The position numbers were made by a program, and so were the translations under genes. Positions 17,423-63,585 of a stretch of DNA of 64,000 nucleotides are shown here, in pieces. The notes beneath the pieces were generated by a model, which was not told the origin of the DNA, did no database searches, and was given only the letters and a program-made list of their open reading frames with translations. Within the stretch, counting starts at the first letter, position 1, and each line of letters opens with the position of its first letter. The DNA lies in sequence record OZ035741.1; one strand, written 5' to 3'. The DNA is from Felixounavirus LF82P2.

Positions 17423-18469
17423 ATGGAGAAGTACACATTAACAAAACTTCCCGATTCAGTTACACATGTTTTTATTGACTCTGACAGCATTGCCTATAAA
17501 GGTGCTTGTGTAGTTGAGAAAGCAAAATATAAATACGTCAATAAACTCACAGCAGAAGAATCTGAACCATTTGACAATGCGAAAGATGCTGCAAGATGGT
17601 TAGCAGACCAGAGAATCCTTGTGGAAGAACTTGGCCTGACATTTGATGAAGATGAATGGGAAAGACAGACTTGGAAAGAAGCTAAGAGTGAAAAAGAAGC
17701 TATCATGGCTACTCAACAGGTGCTTCAGGAATGGCTTAAGATTGTTGGTAAAGAAAGAACTTGGGTAGGCTATTTAACAGAGAAAGGTGTGCATAAACAT
17801 AAAGACATTAAAGGTCTTGAGCACCAATATCAAGGGAACCGTAAAGATGCTGTCACACCAACACACTTAGTCGCTTGTCGTGAATACCTTCTGTCAAGAC
17901 CAGAGTTCAAACTCTTAAAGGGAGGATTCGAAGCCGATTCAATCGTAATTGCTAAAGCTGAAAAGATGGGTAAGAAAGCTGCTCTTATGAGTATTGACAA
18001 AGACCTTCGACAAGCTGAAGGAACTTATTGTATTGATATGACTTATGAAAAGTCACCACTAATTTTTATCGCTGATAATAATGTTGGTGATATCTGGGAT
18101 TGTCCTATCAAATCAAAACCAAAAGCTGCAAAAACAGTTGGTGTAGGTTTTAAATTCTTGTGTTATCAGGCTGTTGCTGGAGATAATGCAGACAACTACT
18201 TCGGCCTAAAAGGTGCTGGTAAAGTAGCTGTGATGAATGCTTTAGATGGTAAAGAGACCTACAAAGAGTGTCTTGACGCTATCTATGAACTCTATGCTAA
18301 AAAAGACTCTTATACCTATGTGTCATGGGATGGACAGACTGTTACAAAGACACCGTTAGAGTTAATGGAACAGCATTTCTTCCTAGCTTATCAAGAGCGA
18401 AATAAATCAGATATTTTTTCATTTGAAAAGTATGGTTGGACTCCAAATGTTGACTCAGCAGATACTTAA
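17423..18469 (+). CDS. 5'-3' exonuclease / flap endonuclease
   Basis: H3TH-like GDNADNYFGLKGAGKVA motif and acidic residues near N-terminus. Confidence 0.55.
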   Translation: MEKYTLTKLPDSVTHVFIDSDSIAYKGACVVEKAKYKYVNKLTAEESEPFDNAKDAARWLADQRILVEELGLTFDEDEWERQTWKEAKSEKEAIMATQQVLQEWLKIVGKERTWVGYLTEKGVHKHKDIKGLEHQYQGNRKDAVTPTHLVACREYLLSRPEFKLLKGGFEADSIVIAKAEKMGKKAALMSIDKDLRQAEGTYCIDMTYEKSPLIFIADNNVGDIWDCPIKSKPKAAKTVGVGFKFLCYQAVAGDNADNYFGLKGAGKVAVMNALDGKETYKECLDAIYELYAKKDSYTYVSWDGQTVTKTPLELMEQHFFLAYQERNKSDIFSFEKYGWTPNVDSADT

Positions 18470-18947
18470 AGAATATCTACACTATGACCCCGAAACAGGG
18501 GTCTTTACGTGGATAAAGAAATCAGCTAACAGAACAGTTATAGGTTCCATTGCAGGTACACCACATAAGCGAGGTTATATTAGGATAAAAATTAAAAGAA
18601 AACCCTATATGGCTCATGATTTAGCAATCCTGTACACAGACGGTTTCCTACCTAACAGAGTAGACCATCGCAACGGTATTACTAATGATAATCGGAGATT
18701 AAATCTAAGGGTTTGCACACAAGCTGAAAACTCTTGGAATAGAAGAACACACTCCAACAACACATCTGGAGTTAAGGGTGTATCTTTCTATAAGGCTAAC
18801 CAAAAATGGAAGGCCAGAGTTATGACACACGGAGTATCTCACTTTCTGGGGTATTTTGACAGTATTGAAGATGCCAAAGATGCAGTCACAAAGAAAAGAG
18901 AAGAACTACATAAAGAGTTTTCAAATCACGGAGAAGCTTATGAATGA
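18423..18947 (+). CDS. HNH homing endonuclease (AP2-like)
   Basis: GVFTW motif; DHRNGITNDNRRLNLRVCTQAEN core; paralog of 8308-8871. Confidence 0.6.
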   Translation: MKSMVGLQMLTQQILKEYLHYDPETGVFTWIKKSANRTVIGSIAGTPHKRGYIRIKIKRKPYMAHDLAILYTDGFLPNRVDHRNGITNDNRRLNLRVCTQAENSWNRRTHSNNTSGVKGVSFYKANQKWKARVMTHGVSHFLGYFDSIEDAKDAVTKKREELHKEFSNHGEAYE

Positions 18948-19441
18948 AGATTAAAGGATTTGGCAATTGCCCCACCTATGGTCATTGGGTATCTTTATGT
19001 GGGGAAGTTGACCCCACTAAACATTTTGGCTTTGTCTATTTAGTACACTGTAAGAAGACTGGACAATATTATATCGGAAAGAAACAGCTTAATAGTGTGA
19101 CTAAAAGAAAAGTTGCTGGCAAGACTCGGAAGAAGGTAGTCACTAAGGAGAGTGATTGGATGACTTATGAGACTTCTTCTGAGTATATCAAAAAAGATAT
19201 TGAAAGCTTTGGAAAAGAATCTTTTGACTTTTATATTATTCAAACCTACTACACGAAAGGTGGTCTAGTTTATGGTGAAGCAAACCTCCAACATAAATTC
19301 GATGTAATGACAAAAAGGATTGACTCTAAGCTCAGACTCTTCTACAATGCCAATATTGCAGCAATTAAGTTTATTACTAAAGAAACTTATGAAGATGCTG
19401 AAAAAAGAATCCATAAGGTAATGAAAGCAAATTGTGCTTGA
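18944..19441 (+). CDS. hypothetical protein
   Basis: 165 aa ORF. Confidence 0.4.
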   Translation: MKIKGFGNCPTYGHWVSLCGEVDPTKHFGFVYLVHCKKTGQYYIGKKQLNSVTKRKVAGKTRKKVVTKESDWMTYETSSEYIKKDIESFGKESFDFYIIQTYYTKGGLVYGEANLQHKFDVMTKRIDSKLRLFYNANIAAIKFITKETYEDAEKRIHKVMKANCA

Positions 19442-30261: not shown

Positions 30262-30573
30262 ATGAGCAAAGTTTATAACACTCGTAAGATTCAGATTGCA
30301 GTTCTGTGTCAGTTTATGGTTGAGCAACATAACGCACATTATTGTGGTACGGGATTTCTAACCTTTGGTGGCGAACACATCCCATTTAAGAAAGCTGTGA
30401 AGATGTACAACGAATCTCTTGATGGTAGTAAAGAGCTAGAACAGCTTAAACTAACTTACAATAAGAAAGACAAGAAGATTGTATGTCTAAACCACTCTAT
30501 TAAACCTACAAATTACATTATAAGCAACATTGGCGAAGAAGGCTTCCTCAAAGTGTTGAAAATCTCACAGTAA
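30262..30573 (+). CDS. hypothetical protein
   Basis: 103 aa ORF. Confidence 0.35.
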   Translation: MSKVYNTRKIQIAVLCQFMVEQHNAHYCGTGFLTFGGEHIPFKKAVKMYNESLDGSKELEQLKLTYNKKDKKIVCLNHSIKPTNYIISNIGEEGFLKVLKISQ

Positions 30574-30586
30574 TATTATATGATTA

Positions 30587-30615
30587 GGGAACTGTAAAGG
30601 TTCCCTTTTTATTTT
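30587..30615 (+). terminator. rho-independent terminator
   Basis: GGGAAC..GTTCCC hairpin followed by TTTTTATTTT. Confidence 0.5.
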
Positions 30616-30624
30616 GGAGATAAC

Positions 30625-31140
30625 ATGTATCTGTCAAACCTGAAACGTTCGGCTGCAATGTCAGTTCTAAGACTCAGCTTTGAGGAACGTCAAGAATTTA
30701 TAGACTCCCACAAATATGACCCTTCAAATTCTAATCACATGGTTCTTTGGAATCGTGATAACTTCCGTGAAAGAGCACTTGTCCGTTATTACCCACACTA
30801 CACAATAGATAACCTGTATGAATGGTGTGTTGTGAAGAACACCATTGCAACACTGAACAATCTTTGCAGGTATACGGGTAAGCAAACATTTACACTAGGC
30901 CACCACAAACCTGTTACAAAAGGTGGTGAACATCACTGTGCGAACTGGTTTATCCAAACTAAAGCTGATAACCAGAAGCAAGGAGATAGCCTCCTAAGTA
31001 TCCCTAAGATGACCTATGAAGAGCAAGAGAAATATATCAAAAATAATATGCCAGATGTGCTTGACAACAACTATACAGATTTGGCAATATCTCTCCTGTT
31101 GAAGTTCGAGACAGTTTATAGGGCAACTTATAATGGCTAA
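30625..31140 (+). CDS. HNH endonuclease-like protein
   Basis: GHHKPVTKGGEHHCANWFIQTKADN resembles HNH core. Confidence 0.45.
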   Translation: MYLSNLKRSAAMSVLRLSFEERQEFIDSHKYDPSNSNHMVLWNRDNFRERALVRYYPHYTIDNLYEWCVVKNTIATLNNLCRYTGKQTFTLGHHKPVTKGGEHHCANWFIQTKADNQKQGDSLLSIPKMTYEEQEKYIKNNMPDVLDNNYTDLAISLLLKFETVYRATYNG

Positions 31141-31411
31141 AGAAAAGTGGGAGATTTTACCATTAGTCAGTGAAGGAGGTAATGGTTGTGAAATGTACAT
31201 GATACGTGGTCATGTTCCAGAGCCAATTGCACTTGAGATGGTAAACAACTTTACAGATGGTTCTTACAAAGACTTAGGCGAACCAACTGTCAAGCAACAA
31301 TGGGTTAAACCTGTACCAGACAGCACAGGTAACTGTAGTGTACTTTATCACGTTGTAGACCCTGCAAAATGCAAATCTGCAATGGCAGTAACAAACGTAA
31401 CTTTTGATTGA
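31133..31411 (+). CDS. hypothetical protein
   Basis: 92 aa ORF. Confidence 0.35.
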   Translation: MAKEKWEILPLVSEGGNGCEMYMIRGHVPEPIALEMVNNFTDGSYKDLGEPTVKQQWVKPVPDSTGNCSVLYHVVDPAKCKSAMAVTNVTFD

Positions 31412-31422
31412 GAGAGAAAACT

Positions 31423-32304
31423 ATGAAAACATCTATCCGTGTTACAGTTCATTCACCAACTAAAGGGACTCATGAAGAAGAGTTTAACATCGTCCAATTC
31501 CCTTCTGGTGAGATTGGTGGACACTTTTCGCCAGAGTTTGTTGATTTTACTGCTTATGCAGCATCATCCATCAACAATGTGATTATGATTGTAAAAGGTT
31601 ATGACAAGGACACATTGTTTGCTGTGGCACTTGCTAAAGAAGCAATTGATGATTTAATTCCTCATGATTATGCTTTAAAGACTGTCATCTTTTACTACTT
31701 ACCAAATGCACGATATGACCGTCACATGTTTAAAGGTGACGCAGCAGCTTTAAAGGTTTTTGCTAAACAGATTAATGCAATGGGATTTGGCGCAGTCTGT
31801 GCAGTTGACCCTCACAGTTATGTACCAGATAACCTGTTTAACTGCTTCCAAAGTATTCCTCAAAAGGAGATTGCAGTCCACTATGCAAATGACCCTCTAA
31901 TTGATTACTTAGTAGCCCCAGATGCAGGTGCTGCTAAGAAGATTGCAGAGACTGCTAAAGAGGTGGATAAACCATACATCACAATGTCTAAAGTGCGTAA
32001 CCTTAAGACTGGTGAAATTACTGGTATGCGAATCCTTGATGATGTTGATTTGACAGATAAAACCGTCATGATTCTGGATGATATCTGTGATGGTGGTCGA
32101 ACCTTCATAGAAGCAGCGAAGCATCTTCGTGAAGCAGGTGCAAAACGTGTGGAACTTTATGTAACACATGGTATCTTCTCTAAAGATGTTGAAAACCTTC
32201 TTGACAATGGTATCGACCATATTTACACTACAAACTCTTTAGGCGAAGCTAAAGACCGTGGCTTAACACATTACAGTCAAGTTACTGTAGCAAACCTTGA
32301 TTGA
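31423..32304 (+). CDS. phosphoribosyltransferase-fold protein, probable ribose-phosphate pyrophosphokinase
   Basis: PRPP-binding loop VMILDDICDGGRTF; adjacent to nadV. Confidence 0.5.
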   Translation: MKTSIRVTVHSPTKGTHEEEFNIVQFPSGEIGGHFSPEFVDFTAYAASSINNVIMIVKGYDKDTLFAVALAKEAIDDLIPHDYALKTVIFYYLPNARYDRHMFKGDAAALKVFAKQINAMGFGAVCAVDPHSYVPDNLFNCFQSIPQKEIAVHYANDPLIDYLVAPDAGAAKKIAETAKEVDKPYITMSKVRNLKTGEITGMRILDDVDLTDKTVMILDDICDGGRTFIEAAKHLREAGAKRVELYVTHGIFSKDVENLLDNGIDHIYTTNSLGEAKDRGLTHYSQVTVANLD

Positions 32305-32312
32305 AAGTTTAT

Positions 32313-32333
32313 AGGGGCTTAAAAGCCCCATTT
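32313..32333 (+). terminator. rho-independent terminator
   Basis: GGGGCTTAAAAGCCCC followed by ATTTT. Confidence 0.4.
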
Positions 32334-32349
32334 TGAGAGAGATTAAAAG

Positions 32350-34131
32350 ATGACTAAATCACTTTATGCAGTACCAGCAGGTTTAAACGCAGATGCTTAC
32401 AAATCTGGTCATGTTTACCAGTACCCTAGTGCAACAGAGTACTTGATGTTCAACCTGACACCACGTAGTGACAAATGGTTTAACAGCCCCTTAGCAATTG
32501 ATGGTGTAGTAGCTTTTGGTATTCAACGTTTCGTTAAAGATTACTTGATAGACCACTGGAACGCCACTTTCTTTGAACGTGATAAAAAAGAAGCCATTGA
32601 TGAAATCTTAGAAGTCATGAATGGTGTTCTGGGTAAAGATGCTATCAGTCGAGAGCATTGGGAAGCACTTCACGACTTAGGTTATCTACCAGTTGAAGTA
32701 TACGCTGTAGAAGAAGGTACAGTTGTCCCTATGCGTGTCCCAATGATTGTTTTCCAGAACACTGTTTCAGGTTTCCATTGGGTAGCAGGTTATCTGGAAG
32801 ATGCTTTCTCTGCTGAGATTTGGAAGGCTTGTACCATTGCAACTATTGCATTGCACTACAAACGTATCTGTAAGAAGTGGGCTGACCTTACTTGTGACAA
32901 CGACTTACATTTGCCTTATCAGTGCCATGACTTTGCTATGCGTGGTATGTCCGGCTTTACTGATGACGCATTTAACGCTGTAGGCCACTTAACCAGCTTT
33001 AAAGGAACTGATAGCTTCCCTGCTGTGTATACGGCTAAACGAATCTATGGACAGTCCTACCCAATCTCTGATATTGGTAGCTCTGTACCAGCCACTGAGC
33101 ACTCTGTAATGTGTGCAAACATTGCTTGGGAAGGTGGTAATGAGTTGATTGAAGAAGAAAGACGCTTTAAAGGTGAGTTACAAACCTTCCGTCGTTTCTT
33201 AACAGAAACTTACCCAACTGGTATTGCAAGTATTGTTTCAGATACTTATAACTTCTGGAGAACTGTGTCAGAAATCTTACCAGCACTCCGTAAAGAAATT
33301 ATGGAACGTGATGGTAAACTGGTAATTCGCCCTGACTCTGGAGACCCTGTACATATTGTCACAGGTTATAAAGCAATCCACTTAGAGTGTGCTAAAAAGG
33401 CTTATTACGAGCACCTAAGCAAGCTTGAAGCCAGCGACACAATGTTGAATGCTGTTCTGAACATGAAGCTTGAAAACATCAATTATGGTATTGCTGGATG
33501 GCTACTGTCAGAAGGCTACGAAATGGTTGTTGACAGAGAAGACTTTGAAGTTGCTGATACAGTGCTGTTGAAAAATGCTTATATGGTTGGTTCTGCAAAC
33601 GTTGTAACACGTCCTGTAGCGGAGATTGATGGAGCTATCAAGACACTGTATAACATCTTTGGAGGAACTATCAACTCTAAAGGTTTTAAAGTACTGGATG
33701 AGCATATCGGGCTTATTTATGGCGACTCTATCACGCTGGAACGTGCAAACGAAATACTGAAGCGTTTGTATGAAATGGGTTTTGCAAGCTCTAACGTAGT
33801 GTTTGGTGTAGGTTCTTACACTTACCAGTACATGACTCGTGACACCTTTGCATTTGCTGTCAAAGCAACTCTTGCAAGCATTGGTGGTAAAGAGATTATG
33901 CTTGCAAAAGACCCTAAAACAGATAGTGGTGTTAAGAAATCTGCCTTTGGTGGTGTAGCACCTATGTGGGATGGTGATAAGCTGAAAGCTGTAGATGGCT
34001 ATGGATTCCAGAGTTTTGCAGATGTACTTGACCACCCAGCTTGTGCTTTACGTTTAGTCTTTAGCGACTCTGAGCAGTTTGGTTACACAACTCTTGGGGA
34101 TATTCGAAATAATATTGACAAGCAGCTTTAA
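32350..34131 (+). CDS. nadV: nicotinamide phosphoribosyltransferase
   Basis: 593 aa; N-terminal DAYKSGH..YP signature of NAMPT family. Confidence 0.7.
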   Translation: MTKSLYAVPAGLNADAYKSGHVYQYPSATEYLMFNLTPRSDKWFNSPLAIDGVVAFGIQRFVKDYLIDHWNATFFERDKKEAIDEILEVMNGVLGKDAISREHWEALHDLGYLPVEVYAVEEGTVVPMRVPMIVFQNTVSGFHWVAGYLEDAFSAEIWKACTIATIALHYKRICKKWADLTCDNDLHLPYQCHDFAMRGMSGFTDDAFNAVGHLTSFKGTDSFPAVYTAKRIYGQSYPISDIGSSVPATEHSVMCANIAWEGGNELIEEERRFKGELQTFRRFLTETYPTGIASIVSDTYNFWRTVSEILPALRKEIMERDGKLVIRPDSGDPVHIVTGYKAIHLECAKKAYYEHLSKLEASDTMLNAVLNMKLENINYGIAGWLLSEGYEMVVDREDFEVADTVLLKNAYMVGSANVVTRPVAEIDGAIKTLYNIFGGTINSKGFKVLDEHIGLIYGDSITLERANEILKRLYEMGFASSNVVFGVGSYTYQYMTRDTFAFAVKATLASIGGKEIMLAKDPKTDSGVKKSAFGGVAPMWDGDKLKAVDGYGFQSFADVLDHPACALRLVFSDSEQFGYTTLGDIRNNIDKQL

Positions 34132-34145
34132 AAGTATATGATAAG

Positions 34146-34170
34146 AGGCTCCTACGGGAGCCTTTTTAAT
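34146..34170 (+). terminator. rho-independent terminator
   Basis: GAGGCTCC-TACG-GGAGCCT followed by TTTTT. Confidence 0.45.
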
Positions 34171-41963: not shown

Positions 41964-42749
41964 ATGGGTATTGTAAAAATCATCAATGGTGATATCTTTG
42001 CTGCATTTGATAAAGGTAAGTTTGACATCATTGGTCATGGTTGTAACTGCATGAACCTAATGGGCGCAGGTATCGCTGACAAGATTTCTAAACTTTACCC
42101 AAAAGCATATGAGACCGATACAGAAGTTTATCTCTATGCAGGTGGTATAGGTCACAAACCCTGTGAGAATTTACTAGGTAATTTCTCTGTAGCACGCTTA
42201 AAACAAGGTCGTATAGCTAACCTTTACACTCAGCTTAAGACTGGTAAAGATGCCCGATACAGTGCTTTAGAGTCATCTTTGAAACAGCTTAACAGATACT
42301 GTGAAGTTAATCAGTTGAAGAAAGTTGGTTTACCTATGATTGGTGCAGGTATCGGTGGACTTGACCCTCAAGCCATCACAGTTATCATCAATCAGGTGAT
42401 GAAGAGTGTAGATGTTTATCTGTATGTCTATGAAGGCGAGATGTACCACAAGTTACGCTCAGGTTGGAAGAACTACTGTGAACCAGAATACTTTGCAGGT
42501 GTAGCAGTGTTCACAGATAACGCAGTTACCCTCTTCAGACGAAGAAAAGGTAAGATACATCAAAGTAACCCTCCGGTTGAAAAGATGTCTCTAAGTAACG
42601 CTCTAGTTACCCACCTGTCAAAGAGCAATCACAGAATTGCTGTAACATTTGGTAGTGATGCAGAAGCTTATATCTATGCAAGAACTGATGAGGATATCGA
42701 GGCAATCTTCTCTTCACCAGAAGTTACCTTCTTAGACGCAAAGAACTAA
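41964..42749 (+). CDS. macro-domain protein (ADP-ribose binding/processing)
   Basis: N-terminal IINGDIF..GHGCNCMNLMGAGIA resembles macro-domain core. Confidence 0.45.
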   Translation: MGIVKIINGDIFAAFDKGKFDIIGHGCNCMNLMGAGIADKISKLYPKAYETDTEVYLYAGGIGHKPCENLLGNFSVARLKQGRIANLYTQLKTGKDARYSALESSLKQLNRYCEVNQLKKVGLPMIGAGIGGLDPQAITVIINQVMKSVDVYLYVYEGEMYHKLRSGWKNYCEPEYFAGVAVFTDNAVTLFRRRKGKIHQSNPPVEKMSLSNALVTHLSKSNHRIAVTFGSDAEAYIYARTDEDIEAIFSSPEVTFLDAKN

Positions 42750-58171: not shown

Positions 58172-58248
58172 AAAAGTTTATCTCTGTTTAGCTCAGCTTG
58201 GTAGAGCGTTCCGTTTGGGGCGGTAAGGCCGGAGGTTCAAGTCCTCCA
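58172..58248 (+). tRNA. tRNA-Pro (anticodon TGG)
   Basis: 7 bp acceptor stem, T-loop GGTTCAAGTCC, anticodon loop TTTGGGG, encoded CCA. Confidence 0.7.
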
Positions 58249-58265
58249 ACAGAGACCAAATTAAT

Positions 58266-58343
58266 GTTCCAGTAGACAAAATGGTATAGTCACCACTCTT
58301 TCAAAGTGGACATCTGAGGGTTCAAATCCCTTCTGGAACGCCA
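58266..58343 (+). tRNA. tRNA-Glu (anticodon TTC)
   Basis: Acceptor GTTCCAG/CTGGAAC, anticodon stem CCACT/AGTGG, loop CTTTCAA. Confidence 0.65.
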
Positions 58344-58434
58344 GTTTTGACAGAAGACCAAATACAGCAAACTTAATCTTATTCATCTGAAGGTAAATCG
58401 GACAAAGAAGAGATTTGGTCTGGTCATTAAGAAT

Positions 58435-58511
58435 TGCGGGTATAGAGAAAGGGCGTCTCACATGTCTCATTAGCATGGTATCGGCAGGTTCGACTCCTGC
58501 ACCCGCCTCCA
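58435..58511 (+). tRNA. tRNA-Met (anticodon CAT), atypical (T at position 37, mismatch at pair 1-72)
   Basis: Anticodon stem CATGT/GCATG, loop CTCATTA, T-loop GGTTCGACTCC. Confidence 0.5.
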
Positions 58512-58594
58512 AATTTACAGAAGACCGTTTACAGCAACATTTATTAAATTTTTAGCGGAAAAATTGAAAGATACGGTCTGGTAATACTAAACAT

Positions 58595-58671
58595 GGTTAG
58601 GAAGCACATAAGGTATGTGCGGTCGCCTGTTAAGCGAATGGCACAGGGTTCGAATCCCTGACTAACCGCCA
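58595..58671 (+). tRNA. tRNA-Asn (anticodon GTT)
   Basis: Anticodon loop CTGTTAA; T-loop GGGTTCGAATCCC; CCA encoded. Confidence 0.65.
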
Positions 58672-58740
58672 AATTTAGGAGAGAAGCGATTGCTCACCGA
58701 TTTGTAAGGTGCAAGTCCTTAGCCTGAATAGAAATTAAAT

Positions 58741-58828
58741 GTGTCGTTATCCCGTAGATGGTAGCGGTGGGGACTGTAAATCCCTTGTCATTGAGACTCG
58801 GTAGGTTCGACTCCTACACGGCACACCA
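58741..58828 (+). tRNA. tRNA-Tyr (anticodon GTA), long variable arm
   Basis: Acceptor GTGTCGT/ACGGCAC, anticodon stem GGGGA/TCCCT loop CTGTAAA, 88 nt. Confidence 0.7.
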
Positions 58829-58833
58829 ATAAA

Positions 58834-58911
58834 GGTTATGTAGTTTAATTTGGTTAAAATACTCCCCTGTCACGGGAGATGATGAGGGTTCAAATCCCTT
58901 CGTAACCGCCA
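58834..58911 (+). tRNA. tRNA-Asp (anticodon GTC)
   Basis: Acceptor GGTTATG/CGTAACC, anticodon stem CTCCC/GGGAG loop CTGTCAC. Confidence 0.7.
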
Positions 58912-59081
58912 ATTTTGAGAGGGCTATTTAGCCCCTCCCTTAAAGGGTTCTTACGAGTATCCTTTAAAGGAGCAGAAGACCAAATACAGCAAGTTACTTA
59001 AAATTTCAAGCCAATTTAATTTTGAAAAATTTAAAACTTGGTCTGGCTCAACAAATTTACAGAAGACCGTTTACAGCAAAA

Positions 59082-59178
59082 CTTAAACAATCTATTTCTC
59101 GGTAAAGAAAAGGCGAAGGTTCGATTCCTTCACTCGGCAGATGTCGAGTTGGTGTAATGGTAGCACTTAAGATGATAA
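59082..59178 (+). pseudogene. tRNA halves in permuted order (3' half upstream of 5' half); possible circularly permuted tRNA or rearranged pseudogene
   Basis: 3' part 59082-59139 (CTTAA, variable-arm hairpin, T-arm GAAGG-TTCGATT-CCTTC, acceptor ACTCGGC) then 5' part 59143-59178 (acceptor GTCGAGT, D-arm, TTAAG, loop ATGATAA). Confidence 0.35.
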
Positions 59179-59339
59179 ACAACGGTCTGGTAATTATCTT
59201 TGTAGATAAGTTATTAAGCTTACCTGTGAGTATGCGACCACAAAGGGTGAAAGGGTAAATTCTAGATTTAAACCCAAAAAGGCACATCGCTACAGACCTT
59301 AAGCAAGTCTGGGTAGCTTATCTACAAAGATAATTTAAT

Positions 59340-59415
59340 GGAAGTGTAGCAGAATGGTGATGCGGCAGACTTTTAATCTGACAGGCGATGGGTTCGAATC
59401 CCTCCACTTCTACCA
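59340..59415 (+). tRNA. tRNA-Lys (anticodon TTT)
   Basis: Acceptor GGAAGTG/CACTTCT, anticodon loop CTTTTAA, T-loop GGGTTCGAATCCC. Confidence 0.65.
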
Positions 59416-59419
59416 ATAT

Positions 59420-59496
59420 GGTTCAGTCGCAGATAAGGTAATGCAAGGGTCTCATAAGCCCTATGAATGTGGGTTCGAATCCCATCTGAACCTCCA
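59420..59496 (+). tRNA. tRNA-Met (anticodon CAT), GGG/CCC anticodon stem (initiator-like feature)
   Basis: Anticodon arm AGGGT-CTCATAA-GCCCT; acceptor GGTTCAG/CTGAACC fully paired. Confidence 0.65.
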
Positions 59497-59498
59497 AT

Positions 59499-59573
59499 TG
59501 TGGGTTAGCATAAATGGTAATGCAAACGGCTGATAACCGTTAGAAGAGGGTTCGATACCCTCACCTACAACCA
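59499..59573 (+). tRNA. tRNA-Ile (anticodon GAT)
   Basis: Anticodon arm AACGG-CTGATAA-CCGTT; T-loop GGGTTCGATACCC. Confidence 0.7.
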
Positions 59574-59591
59574 AGTTCAATAAAGTTGTTG

Positions 59592-59620
59592 ACATTGAGA
59601 TGTGACTACTTTATAGTAAC
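59592..59620 (+). promoter_or_regulatory. sigma70-like promoter inside tRNA cluster (TTGACA-17-TATAGT)
   Basis: Consensus -35 and good -10 in spacer after tRNA-Ile. Confidence 0.45.
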
Positions 59621-59821
59621 CTTAGTTTTCGTTGCGTAGCGTCTATTTTGCAAATTTAAAATAAATGCAAACGACAATGTTTTTCTGGCAGTAGCTTGAT
59701 AGGCTAAACACCAGTGAGGTCTTCCAATCCCTCATCAAAGAATTTGGCGTACTCGCCCACGGTATGATTAATAAGGTGGGCATCTTTAAGGGCTTTCTAA
59801 GAGAGTCTTTAAAGATAATTA

Positions 59822-59903
59822 CGGGGCGTATCTCAGCGGTCTTCTAAACCGCCGTTAACCGAGTAAGTGGAGTATGCGGGTTCGAGTCCTGCCGCCTCGA
59901 CCA
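59822..59903 (+). tRNA. atypical tRNA-like gene (possible Arg, anticodon TCT), non-canonical arm arrangement
   Basis: Acceptor CGGGGCG/CGCCTCG plus T-arm GCGGG-TTCGAGT-CCTGC and CCA; perfect hairpin GCGGT-CTTCTAA-ACCGC sits where the D-arm should be. Confidence 0.4.
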
Positions 59904-60046
59904 ATTTAGTTAGCAGATTACTTAGACGACCTAAGCGGGTCTTCCTGTAGGGAGGTGGTCTGTATCTCATGTTTTCCAGAACATGTAAATAATCTGAGAA
60001 GGGGCTTTACAGTGTTGAGATAATACGGTAAGCTTCGAATTATAGT

Positions 60047-60129
60047 ATGGGACGATGTTAAGACTCTAAGGCATGAGCAACGGCCTCCAAAACCGTTTCA
60101 AAGGGGTTCAACTCCTCCGTCCCATGCCA
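60047..60129 (+). tRNA. tRNA-Trp (anticodon CCA), enlarged D region (83 nt)
   Basis: Perfect acceptor ATGGGAC/GTCCCAT, anticodon arm ACGGC-CTCCAAA-ACCGT, T-loop GGGGTTCAACTCC. Confidence 0.5.
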
Positions 60130-60142
60130 AAGTCTTATTAGG

Positions 60143-60230
60143 GGTAGGTAGCGGCTAATGGCAGCCAAACAGTCTTGAAAACTGTTGCCACTGTAGAGAT
60201 ACGGTGAGGGTTCGACTCCTTTACTTACCG
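60143..60230 (+). tRNA. tRNA-Ser (anticodon TGA), long variable arm, CCA not encoded
   Basis: Anticodon arm ACAGT-CTTGAAA-ACTGT; long variable arm; T-loop GGGTTCGACTCC. Confidence 0.65.
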
Positions 60231-60488
60231 CCTAATAAGATTTTTAAAGCCAAGCTTCATTCGGATGTTGCTTTGGTATCCCTCGTGTATTGTCGTACAC
60301 ACTGATAAAACACCTAGTAGGTGTCACGGAGAAGAGATAATATCAAGCTCTCCAAAGGTTCTAGTCACCGGATTAAACAAGACTATGCAAAGACCTTTTA
60401 GGTCTTTTTAGAGGGCTTCTAAGGTTATTACAGCTTGTTGTGGAACCTTGTTGCTTAGGTTCTTAGAAGTTCTCTAAAAAGATTTAAT

Positions 60489-60566
60489 GGGAGATTGACG
60501 GTAATTGGTAAACCTATCTCGCTTAGAACGAGATGTTTGAGGGTTCGAATCCCTTGTCTCCTACCA
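60489..60566 (+). tRNA. tRNA-Leu (anticodon TAG) with short variable loop
   Basis: Anticodon arm TCTCG-CTTAGAA-CGAGA perfect; discriminator A; T-loop GGGTTCGAATCCC. Confidence 0.55.
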
Positions 60567-60573
60567 AATTAAT

Positions 60574-60649
60574 GCAGGTGTAGCAAAATGGTTATGCGGC
60601 TGACTCTTAATCAGTAAGACGATGGGTTCAATTCCCTCCACCTGTACCA
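60574..60649 (+). tRNA. tRNA-Lys (anticodon CTT)
   Basis: Scaffold similar to tRNA-Lys(TTT); anticodon arm GCTGA-CTCTTAA-TCAGT. Confidence 0.55.
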
Positions 60650-60655
60650 AACAAT

Positions 60656-60731
60656 GGGGTCATAGTTTATATGGTTAAAATTCGAGTTTTGCAAACTTGG
60701 GAACTGAGTTCAATTCTCAGTGACTCCACCA
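60656..60731 (+). tRNA. tRNA-Ala (anticodon TGC)
   Basis: Acceptor GGGGTCA/TGACTCC with G3-T70 wobble; anticodon loop TTTGCAA. Confidence 0.65.
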
Positions 60732-60737
60732 ATTAGT

Positions 60738-60812
60738 GCATCCATAGTTTAAACGGGAAAATTACAGTCTTCCAAACTGAGGTTGAGGGTTCGATTCCCT
60801 CTGGATGCTCCA
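60738..60812 (+). tRNA. tRNA-Gly (anticodon TCC)
   Basis: Acceptor GCATCCA/TGGATGC; anticodon arm ACAGT-CTTCCAA-ACTGA. Confidence 0.65.
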
Positions 60813-60826
60813 AATTAAGGTGTGAT

Positions 60827-61240
60827 ATGAAAATATGCAGTACTTGCAGAATACCAAAAGATGAAAGCTTATTCCATAAGAATAAGAACAAGAAAGACGG
60901 TCTTCAAAGTCAATGCAAAGATTGTGCAAGACTCCGTGATGCAAAGAGTTATCAAGCAAATGATAAAAGGAAAGAGGCTATTAAAAGCACTCGTAACTTC
61001 AAGAGAGAGCATAACAAGACTCTAGCTAGAAGGTACAAAGCTTTATGCAAATGTCATATATGTGGTGAGAAAGAACCAGTTGCACTGGATTTACACCATA
61101 CAGACCCTTCCCAGAAAGATTTGAATCCTGCATCACTTTATTCATACTCCACAAAAAGATTAAAAGATGAAATCAGAAAGTGCATTGTCTTGTGCGCTAA
61201 CTGTCACAGAAAAGTACATGCTGGTATCATAAAAGTTTAA
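60827..61240 (+). CDS. HNH endonuclease embedded in tRNA cluster
   Basis: Cys-rich N-terminus and C-terminal DLHHTD..CANCHRKVH HNH motif. Confidence 0.6.
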   Translation: MKICSTCRIPKDESLFHKNKNKKDGLQSQCKDCARLRDAKSYQANDKRKEAIKSTRNFKREHNKTLARRYKALCKCHICGEKEPVALDLHHTDPSQKDLNPASLYSYSTKRLKDEIRKCIVLCANCHRKVHAGIIKV

Positions 61241-61241
61241 T

Positions 61242-61318
61242 GCTGCTTTCGTATAATTGGCTATTACACATCCCTTGTAAGGATGGAAATGCAGGTTCGA
61301 GTCCTGTGAGCAGCACCA
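61242..61318 (+). tRNA. tRNA-Thr (anticodon TGT)
   Basis: Anticodon arm CATCC-CTTGTAA-GGATG; T-loop GGTTCGAGTCC. Confidence 0.7.
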
Positions 61319-61413
61319 ATTCAGAGGTCAAGTGAAAGACCGCTGGTGTCAACTGAAGACCGTAACAAATTCCACGGAGTTGAGTTAGCGGCACAACTTC
61401 AGACCTCTTTCAT

Positions 61414-61488
61414 ACTCGCTTAGTTTATATGGTAAAACATCACCCTTACAAGATGAAGAAAAAGGTTCAAGTCCTTTAGTGAGTACCA
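61414..61488 (+). tRNA. tRNA-Val (anticodon TAC), one mismatch in anticodon stem
   Basis: Acceptor ACTCGCT/AGTGAGT; anticodon arm TCACC-CTTACAA-GATGA (C-A mismatch). Confidence 0.5.
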
Positions 61489-61489
61489 T

Positions 61490-61567
61490 GTTCCAGTATC
61501 CCAATTGGCAGAGGATGCAAGCTCAAACCTTGTACTAGTGACGGTTCGAATCCGTCTTGGAACACCA
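61490..61567 (+). tRNA. tRNA-Leu (anticodon CAA) with short variable loop
   Basis: Anticodon arm GCAAG-CTCAAAC-CTTGT; discriminator A; T-loop GGTTCGAATCC. Confidence 0.55.
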
Positions 61568-61572
61568 ATTTT

Positions 61573-61648
61573 GCAGGATTAGTTCAAATGGATAGAGCAA
61601 CAGTCTACGAAGCTGTTAATAGGGGTTCGAATCCCTTATCCTGCGCCA
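61573..61648 (+). tRNA. tRNA-Arg (anticodon ACG)
   Basis: Acceptor GCAGGAT/ATCCTGC; anticodon arm ACAGT-CTACGAA-GCTGT. Confidence 0.7.
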
Positions 61649-61667
61649 ATTTAAAGAGGCTATTTAG

Positions 61668-62225
61668 ATGAGATATTTGAAGTATGCTTCATGGATTTTC
61701 TTAGCTTTGTTAGAACCATTTGCAGCAATCTTAGCAGTTATCTTAGCACCTTTTGTAGTTCCATTTTACAGTGAGAAGAAAGGACACTTACCTTTCGGAT
61801 TTAGATGGATGGAAACTTATGACAACCCAATTGATGGTGATGAAGGTCACGTTAAAAGATGGGCTAATATTAGATGGATTGGTAAGCTTGGTGTCTATAT
61901 GCAGAGAGTCGGTTGGCTCTGGAGAAACAAAGCTTATAACTTCTCTTACCATGTGTTAGGAAGAGATGTAAAAGATGTTACTAAGTGGAAAGGTAATATC
62001 AACGTAAGTTCTAACCCTGAAGATAATCAGACAGGTTATCTCCTAATGTGGAACAGCAATGCTTGGGGATTATTCGCTTTTATACCATCAATTAAAATCT
62101 TTGGTAAACAGTTCTACTGGAGAATTTATATTGGGTGGAAGCTAAAAAGTGTTGTCCCAGAAGAAAGAGCATTCTCAAGGGAAAGAGTTATGTTGGCATT
62201 CTTTATTCATCCACTAAGAAATTAA
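61668..62225 (+). CDS. hypothetical membrane protein embedded in tRNA cluster
   Basis: 185 aa; hydrophobic N-terminal segment, Trp-rich. Confidence 0.4.
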   Translation: MRYLKYASWIFLALLEPFAAILAVILAPFVVPFYSEKKGHLPFGFRWMETYDNPIDGDEGHVKRWANIRWIGKLGVYMQRVGWLWRNKAYNFSYHVLGRDVKDVTKWKGNINVSSNPEDNQTGYLLMWNSNAWGLFAFIPSIKIFGKQFYWRIYIGWKLKSVVPEERAFSRERVMLAFFIHPLRN

Positions 62226-62233
62226 AGATTTAA

Positions 62234-62309
62234 AGGGGATTAGTTTACAAGGTTAAAACCTCGGTCTTTGAAATCGAAGAAGTTGGTTCAATTCCAACAT
62301 CCCCCGCCA
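62234..62309 (+). tRNA. tRNA-Gln (anticodon TTG)
   Basis: Anticodon arm TCGGT-CTTTGAA-ATCGA; T-loop GGTTCAATTCC; pair 1-72 mismatched. Confidence 0.6.
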
Positions 62310-62311
62310 AT

Positions 62312-62390
62312 GCTCCATTACTCCAATTGGCAGAGAGGCCAGACTTAAAATCTGTGTTATGTATCGGTTCGAATCCGATATGGAGTACCA
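62312..62390 (+). tRNA. tRNA-Leu (anticodon TAA) with intermediate-length variable region
   Basis: Anticodon loop CTTAAAA; discriminator A; D region similar to tRNA at 61490. Confidence 0.5.
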
Positions 62391-62395
62391 AATTT

Positions 62396-62471
62396 AGCGG
62401 TATAGCATAACTGGCAATGCAACAGTCTCTGAAGCTGTCTTATTAAGGTTCAAATCCTTATGCCGCTGCCA
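62396..62471 (+). tRNA. tRNA-Gln (anticodon CTG)
   Basis: Anticodon arm ACAGT-CTCTGAA-GCTGT; T-loop GGTTCAAATCC. Confidence 0.55.
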
Positions 62472-62502
62472 CTTCTAAGGGTTCTTACGAGAGTCCTTAA
62501 AT

Positions 62503-62578
62503 GTGGCCTTATCATAAATGGTAATGACCCATGCTGTGAACATGGTCTATACGGGTTCAAATCCCGTAGGTCACCCCA
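62503..62578 (+). tRNA. tRNA-His (anticodon GTG)
   Basis: Anticodon arm CCATG-CTGTGAA-CATGG; discriminator C. Confidence 0.7.
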
Positions 62579-62583
62579 ATTTA

Positions 62584-62660
62584 TAGTCCAAGTAGCTTAT
62601 ATGGTTAAAGCGCGTGTCTGAAAAACATGAGAAGAGGGTTCAAATCCCACTGGACTACCA
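62584..62660 (+). tRNA. tRNA-Phe (anticodon GAA)
   Basis: Acceptor TAGTCCA/TGGACTA; anticodon loop CTGAAAA. Confidence 0.6.
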
Positions 62661-62676
62661 ATTTCAAAGGTGCTTA

Positions 62677-63411
62677 ATGAAAGAGATGACAGAACAAGGT
62701 AAGGAGATTTTTAATCTCTTAAAAACCGGTAAAGGGTTTTCTAACCCACTTATTACTGGTGCAGCAGTTCTCGGTGGAACCGTAGCTGCTTCTACATCAC
62801 TTGTAAGCTCTATTAGTTCTGTAACAGACCCTACAATGCAGGAGAAACTTGTTGCTGCTGGACTTACAACAGTCCTTCTAAACAGCTTTACAACAAGCCT
62901 TACAAGCACTACAGCAACTACTAAGACCCTGACAGACTACGGTCAAAAATCTATTGATGAGTTTTCATCACGTATGCAGGTAGCAAAGGGATATTCCAAT
63001 GTTATGGGTGCAGCAGGAGAACAAGTTGGTTGTACACCGTTCAGTGGTATTATGGGTGTTGCTACAGAATATGGTCAAAAAGCTATTGATACGATTAACA
63101 GTACACTAGAGAGTGTTAACAATGTATTAAGTGACTTACAAGACGCTATTGACAAGGGTCTTGATACTGTTTCTGATTTAGCTAACCAAGCTGTCAGTAA
63201 GATTAATGAAGGTATCTCAAAGATTACAGCTTATGCAGATGAAGTTGTGCAGATGATTGAAGAAGAATCTGCCCTTATTGCAGAGTACCTTAAAACGAAT
63301 ATCAATGGGTTCTTAGCAGGTATCTTACCAGACTGGTTTGATGATGCCTGTAAAACTGGTGTAATTGACACTATTGCAACACCAGAAATGAAGAACGCAT
63401 TACAGAAATAA
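62677..63411 (+). CDS. hypothetical protein embedded in tRNA cluster
   Basis: Track ORF 62614-63411 overlaps tRNA-Phe; start moved to ATG 62677 after AAAGG RBS; Thr/Ser-rich then helical. Confidence 0.45.
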   Translation: MKEMTEQGKEIFNLLKTGKGFSNPLITGAAVLGGTVAASTSLVSSISSVTDPTMQEKLVAAGLTTVLLNSFTTSLTSTTATTKTLTDYGQKSIDEFSSRMQVAKGYSNVMGAAGEQVGCTPFSGIMGVATEYGQKAIDTINSTLESVNNVLSDLQDAIDKGLDTVSDLANQAVSKINEGISKITAYADEVVQMIEEESALIAEYLKTNINGFLAGILPDWFDDACKTGVIDTIATPEMKNALQK

Positions 63412-63412
63412 T

Positions 63413-63505
63413 GGAAGATTAACCCTAAAAGGTAAGGGAGCAGTTTGCTAAACTGACAGTAGCTGAGAAATCGGTGTACCAGTTCAAGTCTGGTATCTTC
63501 CTCCA
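63413..63505 (+). tRNA. tRNA-Ser (anticodon GCT), long variable arm
   Basis: Perfect acceptor GGAAGAT/ATCTTCC; anticodon loop TTGCTAA; 93 nt. Confidence 0.65.
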
Positions 63506-63509
63506 ATTT

Positions 63510-63585
63510 GAATCCGTGACAGAAATGGCTATGTGCCTGTCTGCAAAACAGGTTTATAAGGGTTCGAGTCCCTTCGGATTCTCCA
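63510..63585 (+). tRNA. tRNA-Cys (anticodon GCA)
   Basis: Acceptor GAATCCG/CGGATTC; anticodon arm CCTGT-CTGCAAA-ACAGG. Confidence 0.7.

Follow-up and report, generated by a model that had tools for sequence, protein, structure and literature searches.

A two-gene locus of Felixounavirus LF82P2 that very probably encodes the NAD+ reconstitution pathway NARP1

Introduction

NAD+ reconstitution pathway 1 (NARP1) is one of the main routes by which phages escape bacterial immunity that destroys nicotinamide adenine dinucleotide (NAD+). It was discovered in the operon of genes 79 and 80 of Escherichia phage JohannRWettstein (BASEL phage Bas63), with 859 of about 20,000 phage genomes found to carry it (Osterman et al., bioRxiv 10.1101/2024.02.11.579819). 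Here we examined a pair of adjacent genes, adps and namat, at 31423..34131 (+) of a 64,000-nucleotide stretch of DNA from Felixounavirus LF82P2 (OZ035741.1); this whole stretch is called the window below. Judged from its sequence, the locus is very probably the NARP1 operon of a Felixounavirus, and not a module for salvage from phosphoribosyl pyrophosphate (PRPP) to nicotinamide mononucleotide (NMN) that misses its last enzyme.

In the proposed mechanism, a bacterial NADase defence (for example, SIR2-HerA/Nezha, type I Thoeris, DSR1/2 or SEFIR) would split NAD+ into ADP-ribose (ADPR) and nicotinamide. Adps, the ADPR pyrophosphate synthetase, would move the beta,gamma-pyrophosphate of ATP to the 1'' hydroxyl on the distal ribose of ADPR, giving ADPR pyrophosphate (ADPR-PP) and AMP. 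Namat, the nicotinamide ADPR transferase, would then exchange the pyrophosphate of ADPR-PP for nicotinamide to yield NAD+ in one step. Because Namat gives NAD+ directly from ADPR-PP and nicotinamide, NMN adenylyltransferase (NMNAT) would not be needed, and PRPP and NMN would be equally uninvolved.

The starting hypothesis for genes 79-80 of Bas63 was that PRPP is used to make NMN, which NMNAT then converts, and it was rejected experimentally (bioRxiv 10.1101/2024.02.11.579819). Without the two genes, plating of Bas63 on SIR2-HerA cells was about 20-fold lower and NAD+ depletion was deeper; the deletion mutant plated normally on defence-free cells and was impaired only on SIR2-HerA. Since wild-type Bas63 overcame this defence even when the host had neither pncC nor nadR, the routes from NMN to NAD+, NMN was not the product. 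In infected cells, a new metabolite, ADPR-PP, was seen with genes 79-80 and not without them. With purified enzymes of the Bacillus phage SpbetaL1, Adps pyrophosphorylated ADPR with ATP and showed no activity of PRPP synthetase (Prs). SpbetaL1 Namat converted ADPR-PP and nicotinamide directly to NAD+, preferred ADPR-PP over PRPP, and yielded only NAD+ when both substrates were offered. The two enzymes together remade NAD+ from ADPR, nicotinamide and ATP (bioRxiv 10.1101/2024.02.11.579819). In all, NARP1 enzyme activities are on record from SpbetaL1, ICP1, DyoEdafos and P. foliorum homologs, along with in vivo evidence from Bas63.

Both enzymes have been described structurally. Crystal and cryo-EM structures of Adps from the Vibrio phage ICP1 defined its ligand-binding and catalytic residues (Liu et al., PMC13586617). 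Substitution of a lysine in a beta-hairpin (K185 in ICP1, K162 in SpbetaL1) abolishes activity. Namat is defined as a core resembling nicotinamide phosphoribosyltransferase (NAMPT) that carries an adenine 'selectivity clamp', made up of a helix motif (SCH) and a variable loop (SCL). The SCH signature is GSX-Phi-X-Phi-X-Phi-TRD, and the SCL provides a stacking residue, which is either Arg, or a residue that follows Lys/Tyr (Lan et al., PMC12774641).

Results and Discussion

Orthology of the gene pair to the Bas63 operon

The locus consists of two co-oriented adjacent open reading frames (ORFs) separated by a 45-bp spacer, with no other gene called between them. The sequence-only reading had placed an operon-like pair of a PRPP-synthetase-like gene and a NAMPT-family gene here. 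Both the pairing and the gene families were borne out by the ORF call and by searches of Pfam, NCBIfam and PHROGs, with scores far beyond chance. The adps start was taken as the ATG at 31423, which is used in all annotated relatives; a TTG at 31408 is a possible alternative.

The source genome of the window is a Felixounavirus. The 3.4-kb region around the pair matched 257 phage records at 92-97% DNA identity. Nearly all were Felixounavirus, and the hosts of the matching Felixounavirus phages were Escherichia, Salmonella, Shigella and Citrobacter. Bas63 belongs to the same genus, and its NARP1 operon (bas63_0079/0080) occupies the same site, with the gene order nrdG, adps-namat, rIIA shared with the window. 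The protein lengths, 293 and 593 residues, are also the same. Identity to Bas63 reaches 99% for Namat and 94% for the C-terminal half of Adps. The hairpin between the two cistrons and the SCL and SCH motifs are shared as well. The first approximately 500 nucleotides of adps differ, and represent an anciently diverged allele. By these identities and the gene order, the two genes are orthologous to Bas63 genes 79-80. Orthology to a characterised operon is thus joined by the published signatures of Adps and Namat, which are present in the predicted proteins and are described below. The pair is an already-known system that forms standard equipment of the genus Felixounavirus.

The surroundings of the operon raise the question of a different role. 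The pair lies in a nucleotide-metabolism region, with nrdD/nrdG, nrdAB, thyA and dfrA nearby, and it is present in essentially all matched Felixounavirus records (257 in total), which shows constitutive retention. Both features could suggest that Adps and Namat recycle NAD+ and ADPR, for example from ADP-ribosyl turnover, for the nucleotide and DNA metabolism of the phage, independently of any defence. However, loss of the genes from Bas63 was harmless in defence-free hosts (in rich medium) and costly only on SIR2-HerA, and the substrates of NARP1, ADPR and nicotinamide, build up under an active NADase. We consider such a housekeeping role very improbable.

Features of Adps

Adps was matched by the Pfam families Pribosyltran (E 1.2e-11) and Pribosyl_synth (E 4.4e-10), by the NCBIfam model TIGR01251 ribP_PPkin (124.8 bits, cut-off 113) and by phrog_619, 'ribose-phosphate pyrophosphokinase' (E 2e-97). 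TIGR01251 is a broad subfamily model and was the only one that Adps passed; the cut-offs of all NCBIfam Prs equivalogs were missed by a wide interval (for example, 104.7 vs 296 bits and 92.4 vs 297 bits). The identity of Adps to E. coli Prs (b1207) was 24%, and that to other NARP1-linked Adps proteins, including the one from ICP1, was 30-41%. Placement in the Adps clade was made by these pairwise identities and by alignment. The best sequence match in the PDB was the archaeal Prs 4twb. The first gene therefore did not turn out to be an unrelated phosphoribosyltransferase, the outcome that the sequence-only reading had named as contrary to it; it is a relative of PRPP synthetase, but its substrate would be a different one.

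In the alignment with E. coli Prs, Adps is shorter by about 17 residues at the N-terminus and about 22 at the C-terminus. The lost C-terminal stretch corresponds to the regulatory and filament module of Prs, which agrees with the description by Liu et al. (PMC13586617). The pyrophosphate (PP) loop also departs from Prs. Where Adps reads DDICDGGRT, E. coli Prs reads DDMIDTGGT, and the canonical ribose-5-phosphate loop DD(M/I)xDT(G/A)GT is not matched by Adps.

The residues that define Adps were compared through an alignment to the ICP1 gene. F26, R97, H131, D167, K190 and D219-D223 ('DDICD') of the window protein align to F18, R87, H121, D161, K185 and D212-D216 ('DDICD') of ICP1 Adps, and all of them are invariant across the Adps alignments. 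The two proteins share the PRPP-synthetase (PRPS)-like two-domain arrangement, a length of about 280-293 residues, the DDICD loop and the hairpin lysine, and both are without the C-terminal alpha11-alpha12 module of canonical PRPS. They differ in overall sequence (about 30-37% identity) and in the tail of the PP loop, which is GAAS in ICP1 and GGRT in the window.

Features of Namat

Namat was matched by the Pfam families NAPRTase (E 5.9e-35) and NAMPT_N, by NCBIfam NF006629 (469 bits, cut-off 405) and by phrog_448, 'nicotinamide phosphoribosyl transferase' (E 1e-201). Its best sequence matches in the PDB were the Namat crystal structures 9w5w/9w5x, with an E-value of 1.5e-128. The AlphaFold2 model had high confidence, with a predicted local distance difference test (pLDDT) score of 94.3, and its top Foldseek match was again 9w5x, at a template modelling score (TM) of 0.95 and an E-value of 9e-54. 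The model fitted 9w5w/9w5x better than bacterial NadV and human NAMPT in Foldseek.

The catalytic residues and those of the NMN site were retained in the alignment to 9w5x, including D15, Y17, F195, R198, D221, H251, R327, D329, G458 and D459. Six of them (Y17, F195, D221, H251, R327 and D329) were invariant in an alignment of 53 sequences. The SCH motif was carried by all 53 of these diverse homologs, and is common to the NARP1-linked proteins of phiPsa300, Achelous and Megatron. In the SCL, K42 and W43 lie in the segment TPRSDKWF. Lan et al. (PMC12774641) describe this order, in which an aromatic residue comes after Lys, as the Bas63 type.

The two-gene pathway, the catalytic core of Namat, the SCH motif and the fold (TM 0.95) are shared with SpbetaL1. 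The window protein is about 100 residues longer than SpbetaL1 Namat owing to two insertions, uses K42-W43 in the SCL where SpbetaL1 uses R40, and has 37-39% identity to the crystal chains in Foldseek. The larger insertion, of about 75-90 residues, is compact and was modelled confidently both in context and alone (pLDDT 86 alone). The smaller comprises about 14 residues near positions 259-275 (window 33124..33174). Both lie at sites of variable length across the Namat family. Foldseek searches of the PDB and BFVD with the larger insert gave no structural relative (best E 0.26), and this insert is not discussed in the Namat structure paper (Lan et al., PMC12774641).

Chromosomal homologs of Namat with 496 residues were also found in Klebsiella, Cronobacter, Phytobacter, Kosakonia and Erwinia (P0069-P0114), at 46-48% identity over the aligned half. 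These proteins are annotated as 'nicotinate phosphoribosyltransferase' and carry the SCH motif as GSFTYQYNTRD. Their sequences fit the NARP1 that Lan et al. (PMC12774641) described from bacteria.

Search for an NMN adenylyltransferase and the PRPP-to-NMN scheme

An NMN-based pathway would need a further enzyme. A scan of all six frames of the window (stop-to-stop segments of at least 60 residues) found no NMNAT motif, either (H/T)xGH or SSTxxR, and no Nudix box, so the earlier observation that the window holds no recognisable NMNAT stands. Likewise, no NMNAT or Nudix gene is annotated in the complete, near-identical relative TP1 (NC_041979, 88.5 kb).

Based on generic hidden Markov model (HMM) annotation, the first gene could still be read as a true PRPP synthetase and the second as a true NAMPT, with NMN turned into NAD+ by a host NMNAT, an unseen phage NMNAT or PncC/NadR. 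The names deposited for about 250 related genomes point the same way, and without ADPR-PP, SpbetaL1 Namat does convert PRPP to NMN in vitro. However, this scheme was tested and rejected for Bas63, where counter-defence persisted without pncC and nadR and the chemistry seen was that of ADPR-PP, not PRPP. It also has to accommodate an Adps homolog devoid of Prs activity, and a Namat that gives only NAD+ when offered both substrates. In the window itself, the two proteins bear the clamp motif of Namat and the PP loop of the Adps type, and no NMNAT came to light in the motif scan or the TP1 annotation. The scheme is extremely improbable.

Assignment to NARP1 accordingly keeps one part of the sequence-only reading and gives up another. 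The suggestion that the genes counter NAD-depleting defence holds, while the chemistry from PRPP to NMN does not, since it was rejected experimentally for the Bas63 ortholog. The case serves as a warning: profile-HMM labels (Prs plus NAMPT) give a pathway that is coherent but wrong, and about 250 deposited relatives bear those names. Naming the locus NARP1 predicts that the phage will withstand defences like SIR2-HerA, type I Thoeris and DSR, a point of relevance to the choice and engineering of therapeutic phages. Knowledge of NARP1 itself is unchanged by this locus.

Another label in relatives could misdirect searches for NAD genes. The ORF at 18944..19441 (+) of the window, with 165 codons, matches phrog_447, 'NAD synthetase', a name that RefSeq also gives to it in relatives. 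We rejected it as an NAD gene, as its match to PF19835 (98 bits) identifies a SegE-type GIY-YIG homing endonuclease. An ORF for an HNH endonuclease (18423..18947) lies directly upstream.

Several points weigh against the NARP1 assignment. We infer the enzyme activities and the counter-defence phenotype of the window phage from homology. Adps biochemistry was worked out with SpbetaL1, ICP1 and further homologs of about 30-37% identity, and not with purified Bas63 Adps. Moreover, by allele comparison the window Adps is of a different class from that of Bas63, and the protein behind the in vivo evidence therefore has a diverged N-terminal domain. One ligand-site residue is matched inexactly, as F92 of ICP1 aligns to M102 of the window protein, with F103 adjacent. 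Finally, Namat homologs retain some PRPP-to-NMN activity in vitro, and a minor NMN-making side activity is conceivable here.

Comparison with other NAD+ reconstitution pathways

The related pathways share parts of this system. In NARP2 of the Vibrio phage KVP40, which consists of Nampt and the bifunctional Nmnat/Nudix protein NatV, a NAMPT-family enzyme also restores NAD+ against NADase defences. However, NARP2 uses PRPP, proceeds via NMN and needs an Nmnat, and no Nmnat appeared in the window motif scan or the TP1 annotation. The KVP40-like Nampt of phi-Grn1 had 30% identity in the alignment and reads GGGLLQQLDRD where Namat has its clamp motif. The ORFs adjoining this phi-Grn1 gene were scanned for NatV and gave no Pfam match. 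Canonical Prs (E. coli b1207) and Nampt/NadV (Haemophilus ducreyi NadV, 9ke8) share the folds and the class of phosphoribosyl-transfer chemistry with the window pair; the adenine clamp is what sets the window Namat apart from canonical Nampt/NadV. NARP3 was ruled out because its genes, a NadR-like RNK-NMNAT and the transporter PnuC, belong to different families.

The closest variant is NARP1-AP (Adps-Adpp-Namat) of Vibrio phage Gary and the related Thalassavirus (bioRxiv 10.64898/2026.01.28.702374). It has the same Adps and Namat core, but the window operon has no Macro gene inside it or within two genes.

Table 1. Positions of the adps-namat pair, its sequence elements and its transcription signals in the window
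Feature	Position	Strand	Remarks
adps, ADP-ribose pyrophosphate synthetase, PRPP-synthetase-like	31423..32304	+	293 aa; ORF, HMM matches, 78% identity (228/293) to Bas63 gp79
namat, nicotinamide ADP-ribose transferase, NAMPT-like	32350..34131	+	593 aa; ORF, HMM matches, 99% identity (587/593) to Bas63 gp80
Adps catalytic beta-hairpin lysine, K190 codon	31990..31992	+	Invariant alignment column; corresponds to ICP1 K185 and SpbetaL1 K162
Adps PP loop, D219-F228 'DDICDGGRTF', putative donor and distal-ribose site	32077..32106	+	Aligns to ICP1 D212-F221 'DDICDGAASF'
Namat SCL, residues 37-52 'TPRSDKWFNSPLAIDG' with K42-W43	32458..32505	+	Aligns to the SpbetaL1 R40 loop
Namat SCH motif, G488-D498 'GSYTYQYMTRD'	33811..33843	+	Fits the published Namat signature
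Namat inserted alpha/beta subdomain, residues ~340-427, lineage-variable	33367..33630	+	Absent from SpbetaL1 Namat and 496-aa bacterial homologs
Recombinant mosaic 5' part of adps	31423..31900	+	61-82% nucleotide identity to Bas63 vs 92-99% in flanks
Promoter-like site (TTGAAA-17-TATGAT) and terminator-like hairpin opening the unit	30556..30606	+	Consensus matches only
Two upstream ORFs sharing the terminator-bounded unit	30625..31411	+	171 aa (phrog_3500, weak HNH-like match) and 92 aa (phrog_4726); not known NARP1 parts
Intercistronic hairpin GGGGCTTAAAAGCCCC followed by ATTTTG, in the adps-namat spacer	32314..32329	+	RNA fold -14.3 kcal/mol, z -2.3
Strong terminator-like hairpin closing the unit (10-bp stem, then T run)	34143..34166	+	12 nt past the namat stop

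Mosaic 5' part of adps

The allelic difference from Bas63 is confined to the 5' part of adps (Table 1). Codons 1-175 showed a synonymous divergence (dS) of 1.6 and a ratio of nonsynonymous to synonymous divergence (dN/dS) of 0.15 relative to Bas63, and encode a region with 67% amino-acid identity. The C-terminal half of the protein, as noted above, is closely conserved. Two classes of Adps allele are common in Felixounavirus: in about 150 records Adps matched the window protein at 90% identity or more, and in about 94 the identity was 60-80%. Positive selection as the source of the diverged N-terminus was ruled out by the saturated dS of 1.6 and the dN/dS of 0.15. Because of these same values, the sequence comparison indicates that the patch is an old allele exchanged by recombination rather than the result of fast adaptive change. 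A second mosaic patch was noted at 30300..30600, in an ORF of the DUF7390 family.

Transcription unit

A terminator-like hairpin at 30586-30606 is followed by four closely packed ORFs, of 171 and 92 residues, then adps and namat. Sequences of the GAGAGAG type, expected to bind ribosomes, precede both adps and namat. The only terminator-like hairpin belonging to the pair is placed after namat. The hairpin in the spacer has a 6-bp GC-rich stem and a short T tract; it is conserved in the window, Bas63 and TP1, but Wc4 and SunLIRen, which are more distant, have no such hairpin. Partial termination or RNA stability could be its role.

The 171-residue ORF also lies upstream of adps in Wc4 and SunLIRen, where its product has 40-44% identity. 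A functional tie of the two upstream ORFs to NARP1 was considered and rejected, as only the 171-residue ORF recurs, within the Ounavirinae only, and this may be general synteny. In the four small flanking ORFs, no Pfam match was obtained for a Macro or RyR domain, which are found in the NARP1 accessories Adpp and RyDEP.

An unlinked Macro-domain gene

A Macro-domain protein of 261 residues is encoded at 41964..42749 (+), 7.8 kb downstream of namat (PF01661, 30.5 bits; phrog_335, 'phosphatase'). It carries an extra C-terminal region of about 100 residues. Its N-terminal domain has 31-37% identity to the Macro proteins in or beside the NARP1 operons of Achelous and phiPsa300, and the protein shares 28-31% identity with the phosphatase that lies within the operon of Vibrio phage Achelous. 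In NARP1-AP, Adpp is a Macro-domain phosphatase that acts on ADPR-1''-phosphate (bioRxiv 10.64898/2026.01.28.702374). The N-terminal domain is equally similar (38%) to Tk.4 of T4/T6, which was recently named AdfM, an anti-DarTG2 factor. By these similarities, the window protein could have a role like that of Adpp or like that of AdfM.

These features allow for an extended form of the pathway. In a split NARP1, the Macro protein would act like Adpp and turn the ADPR-1''-phosphate left by aRES-type defences into ADPR for Adps and Namat. If true, such an arrangement would have been missed by the published surveys because they covered only two genes around the operon. In addition or instead, the large Namat insert, which has no structural relative in those searches, might serve in regulation or docking as a module peculiar to Namat of phages of Gram-negative hosts. 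We regard this extension, in either form, as unlikely.

The NARP1 neighbourhood is more elaborate in the Pseudomonas phage phiPsa300 (Otagovirus; L006 901..5489). There, two ORFs of 134 and 247 residues, neither with a Pfam match, split the NARP1 genes, and a 40-residue ORF and then a Macro-domain gene follow.

Elsewhere in the window, 25 tRNA genes are clustered at 58182..63585 (+), as is usual for Felixounavirus.

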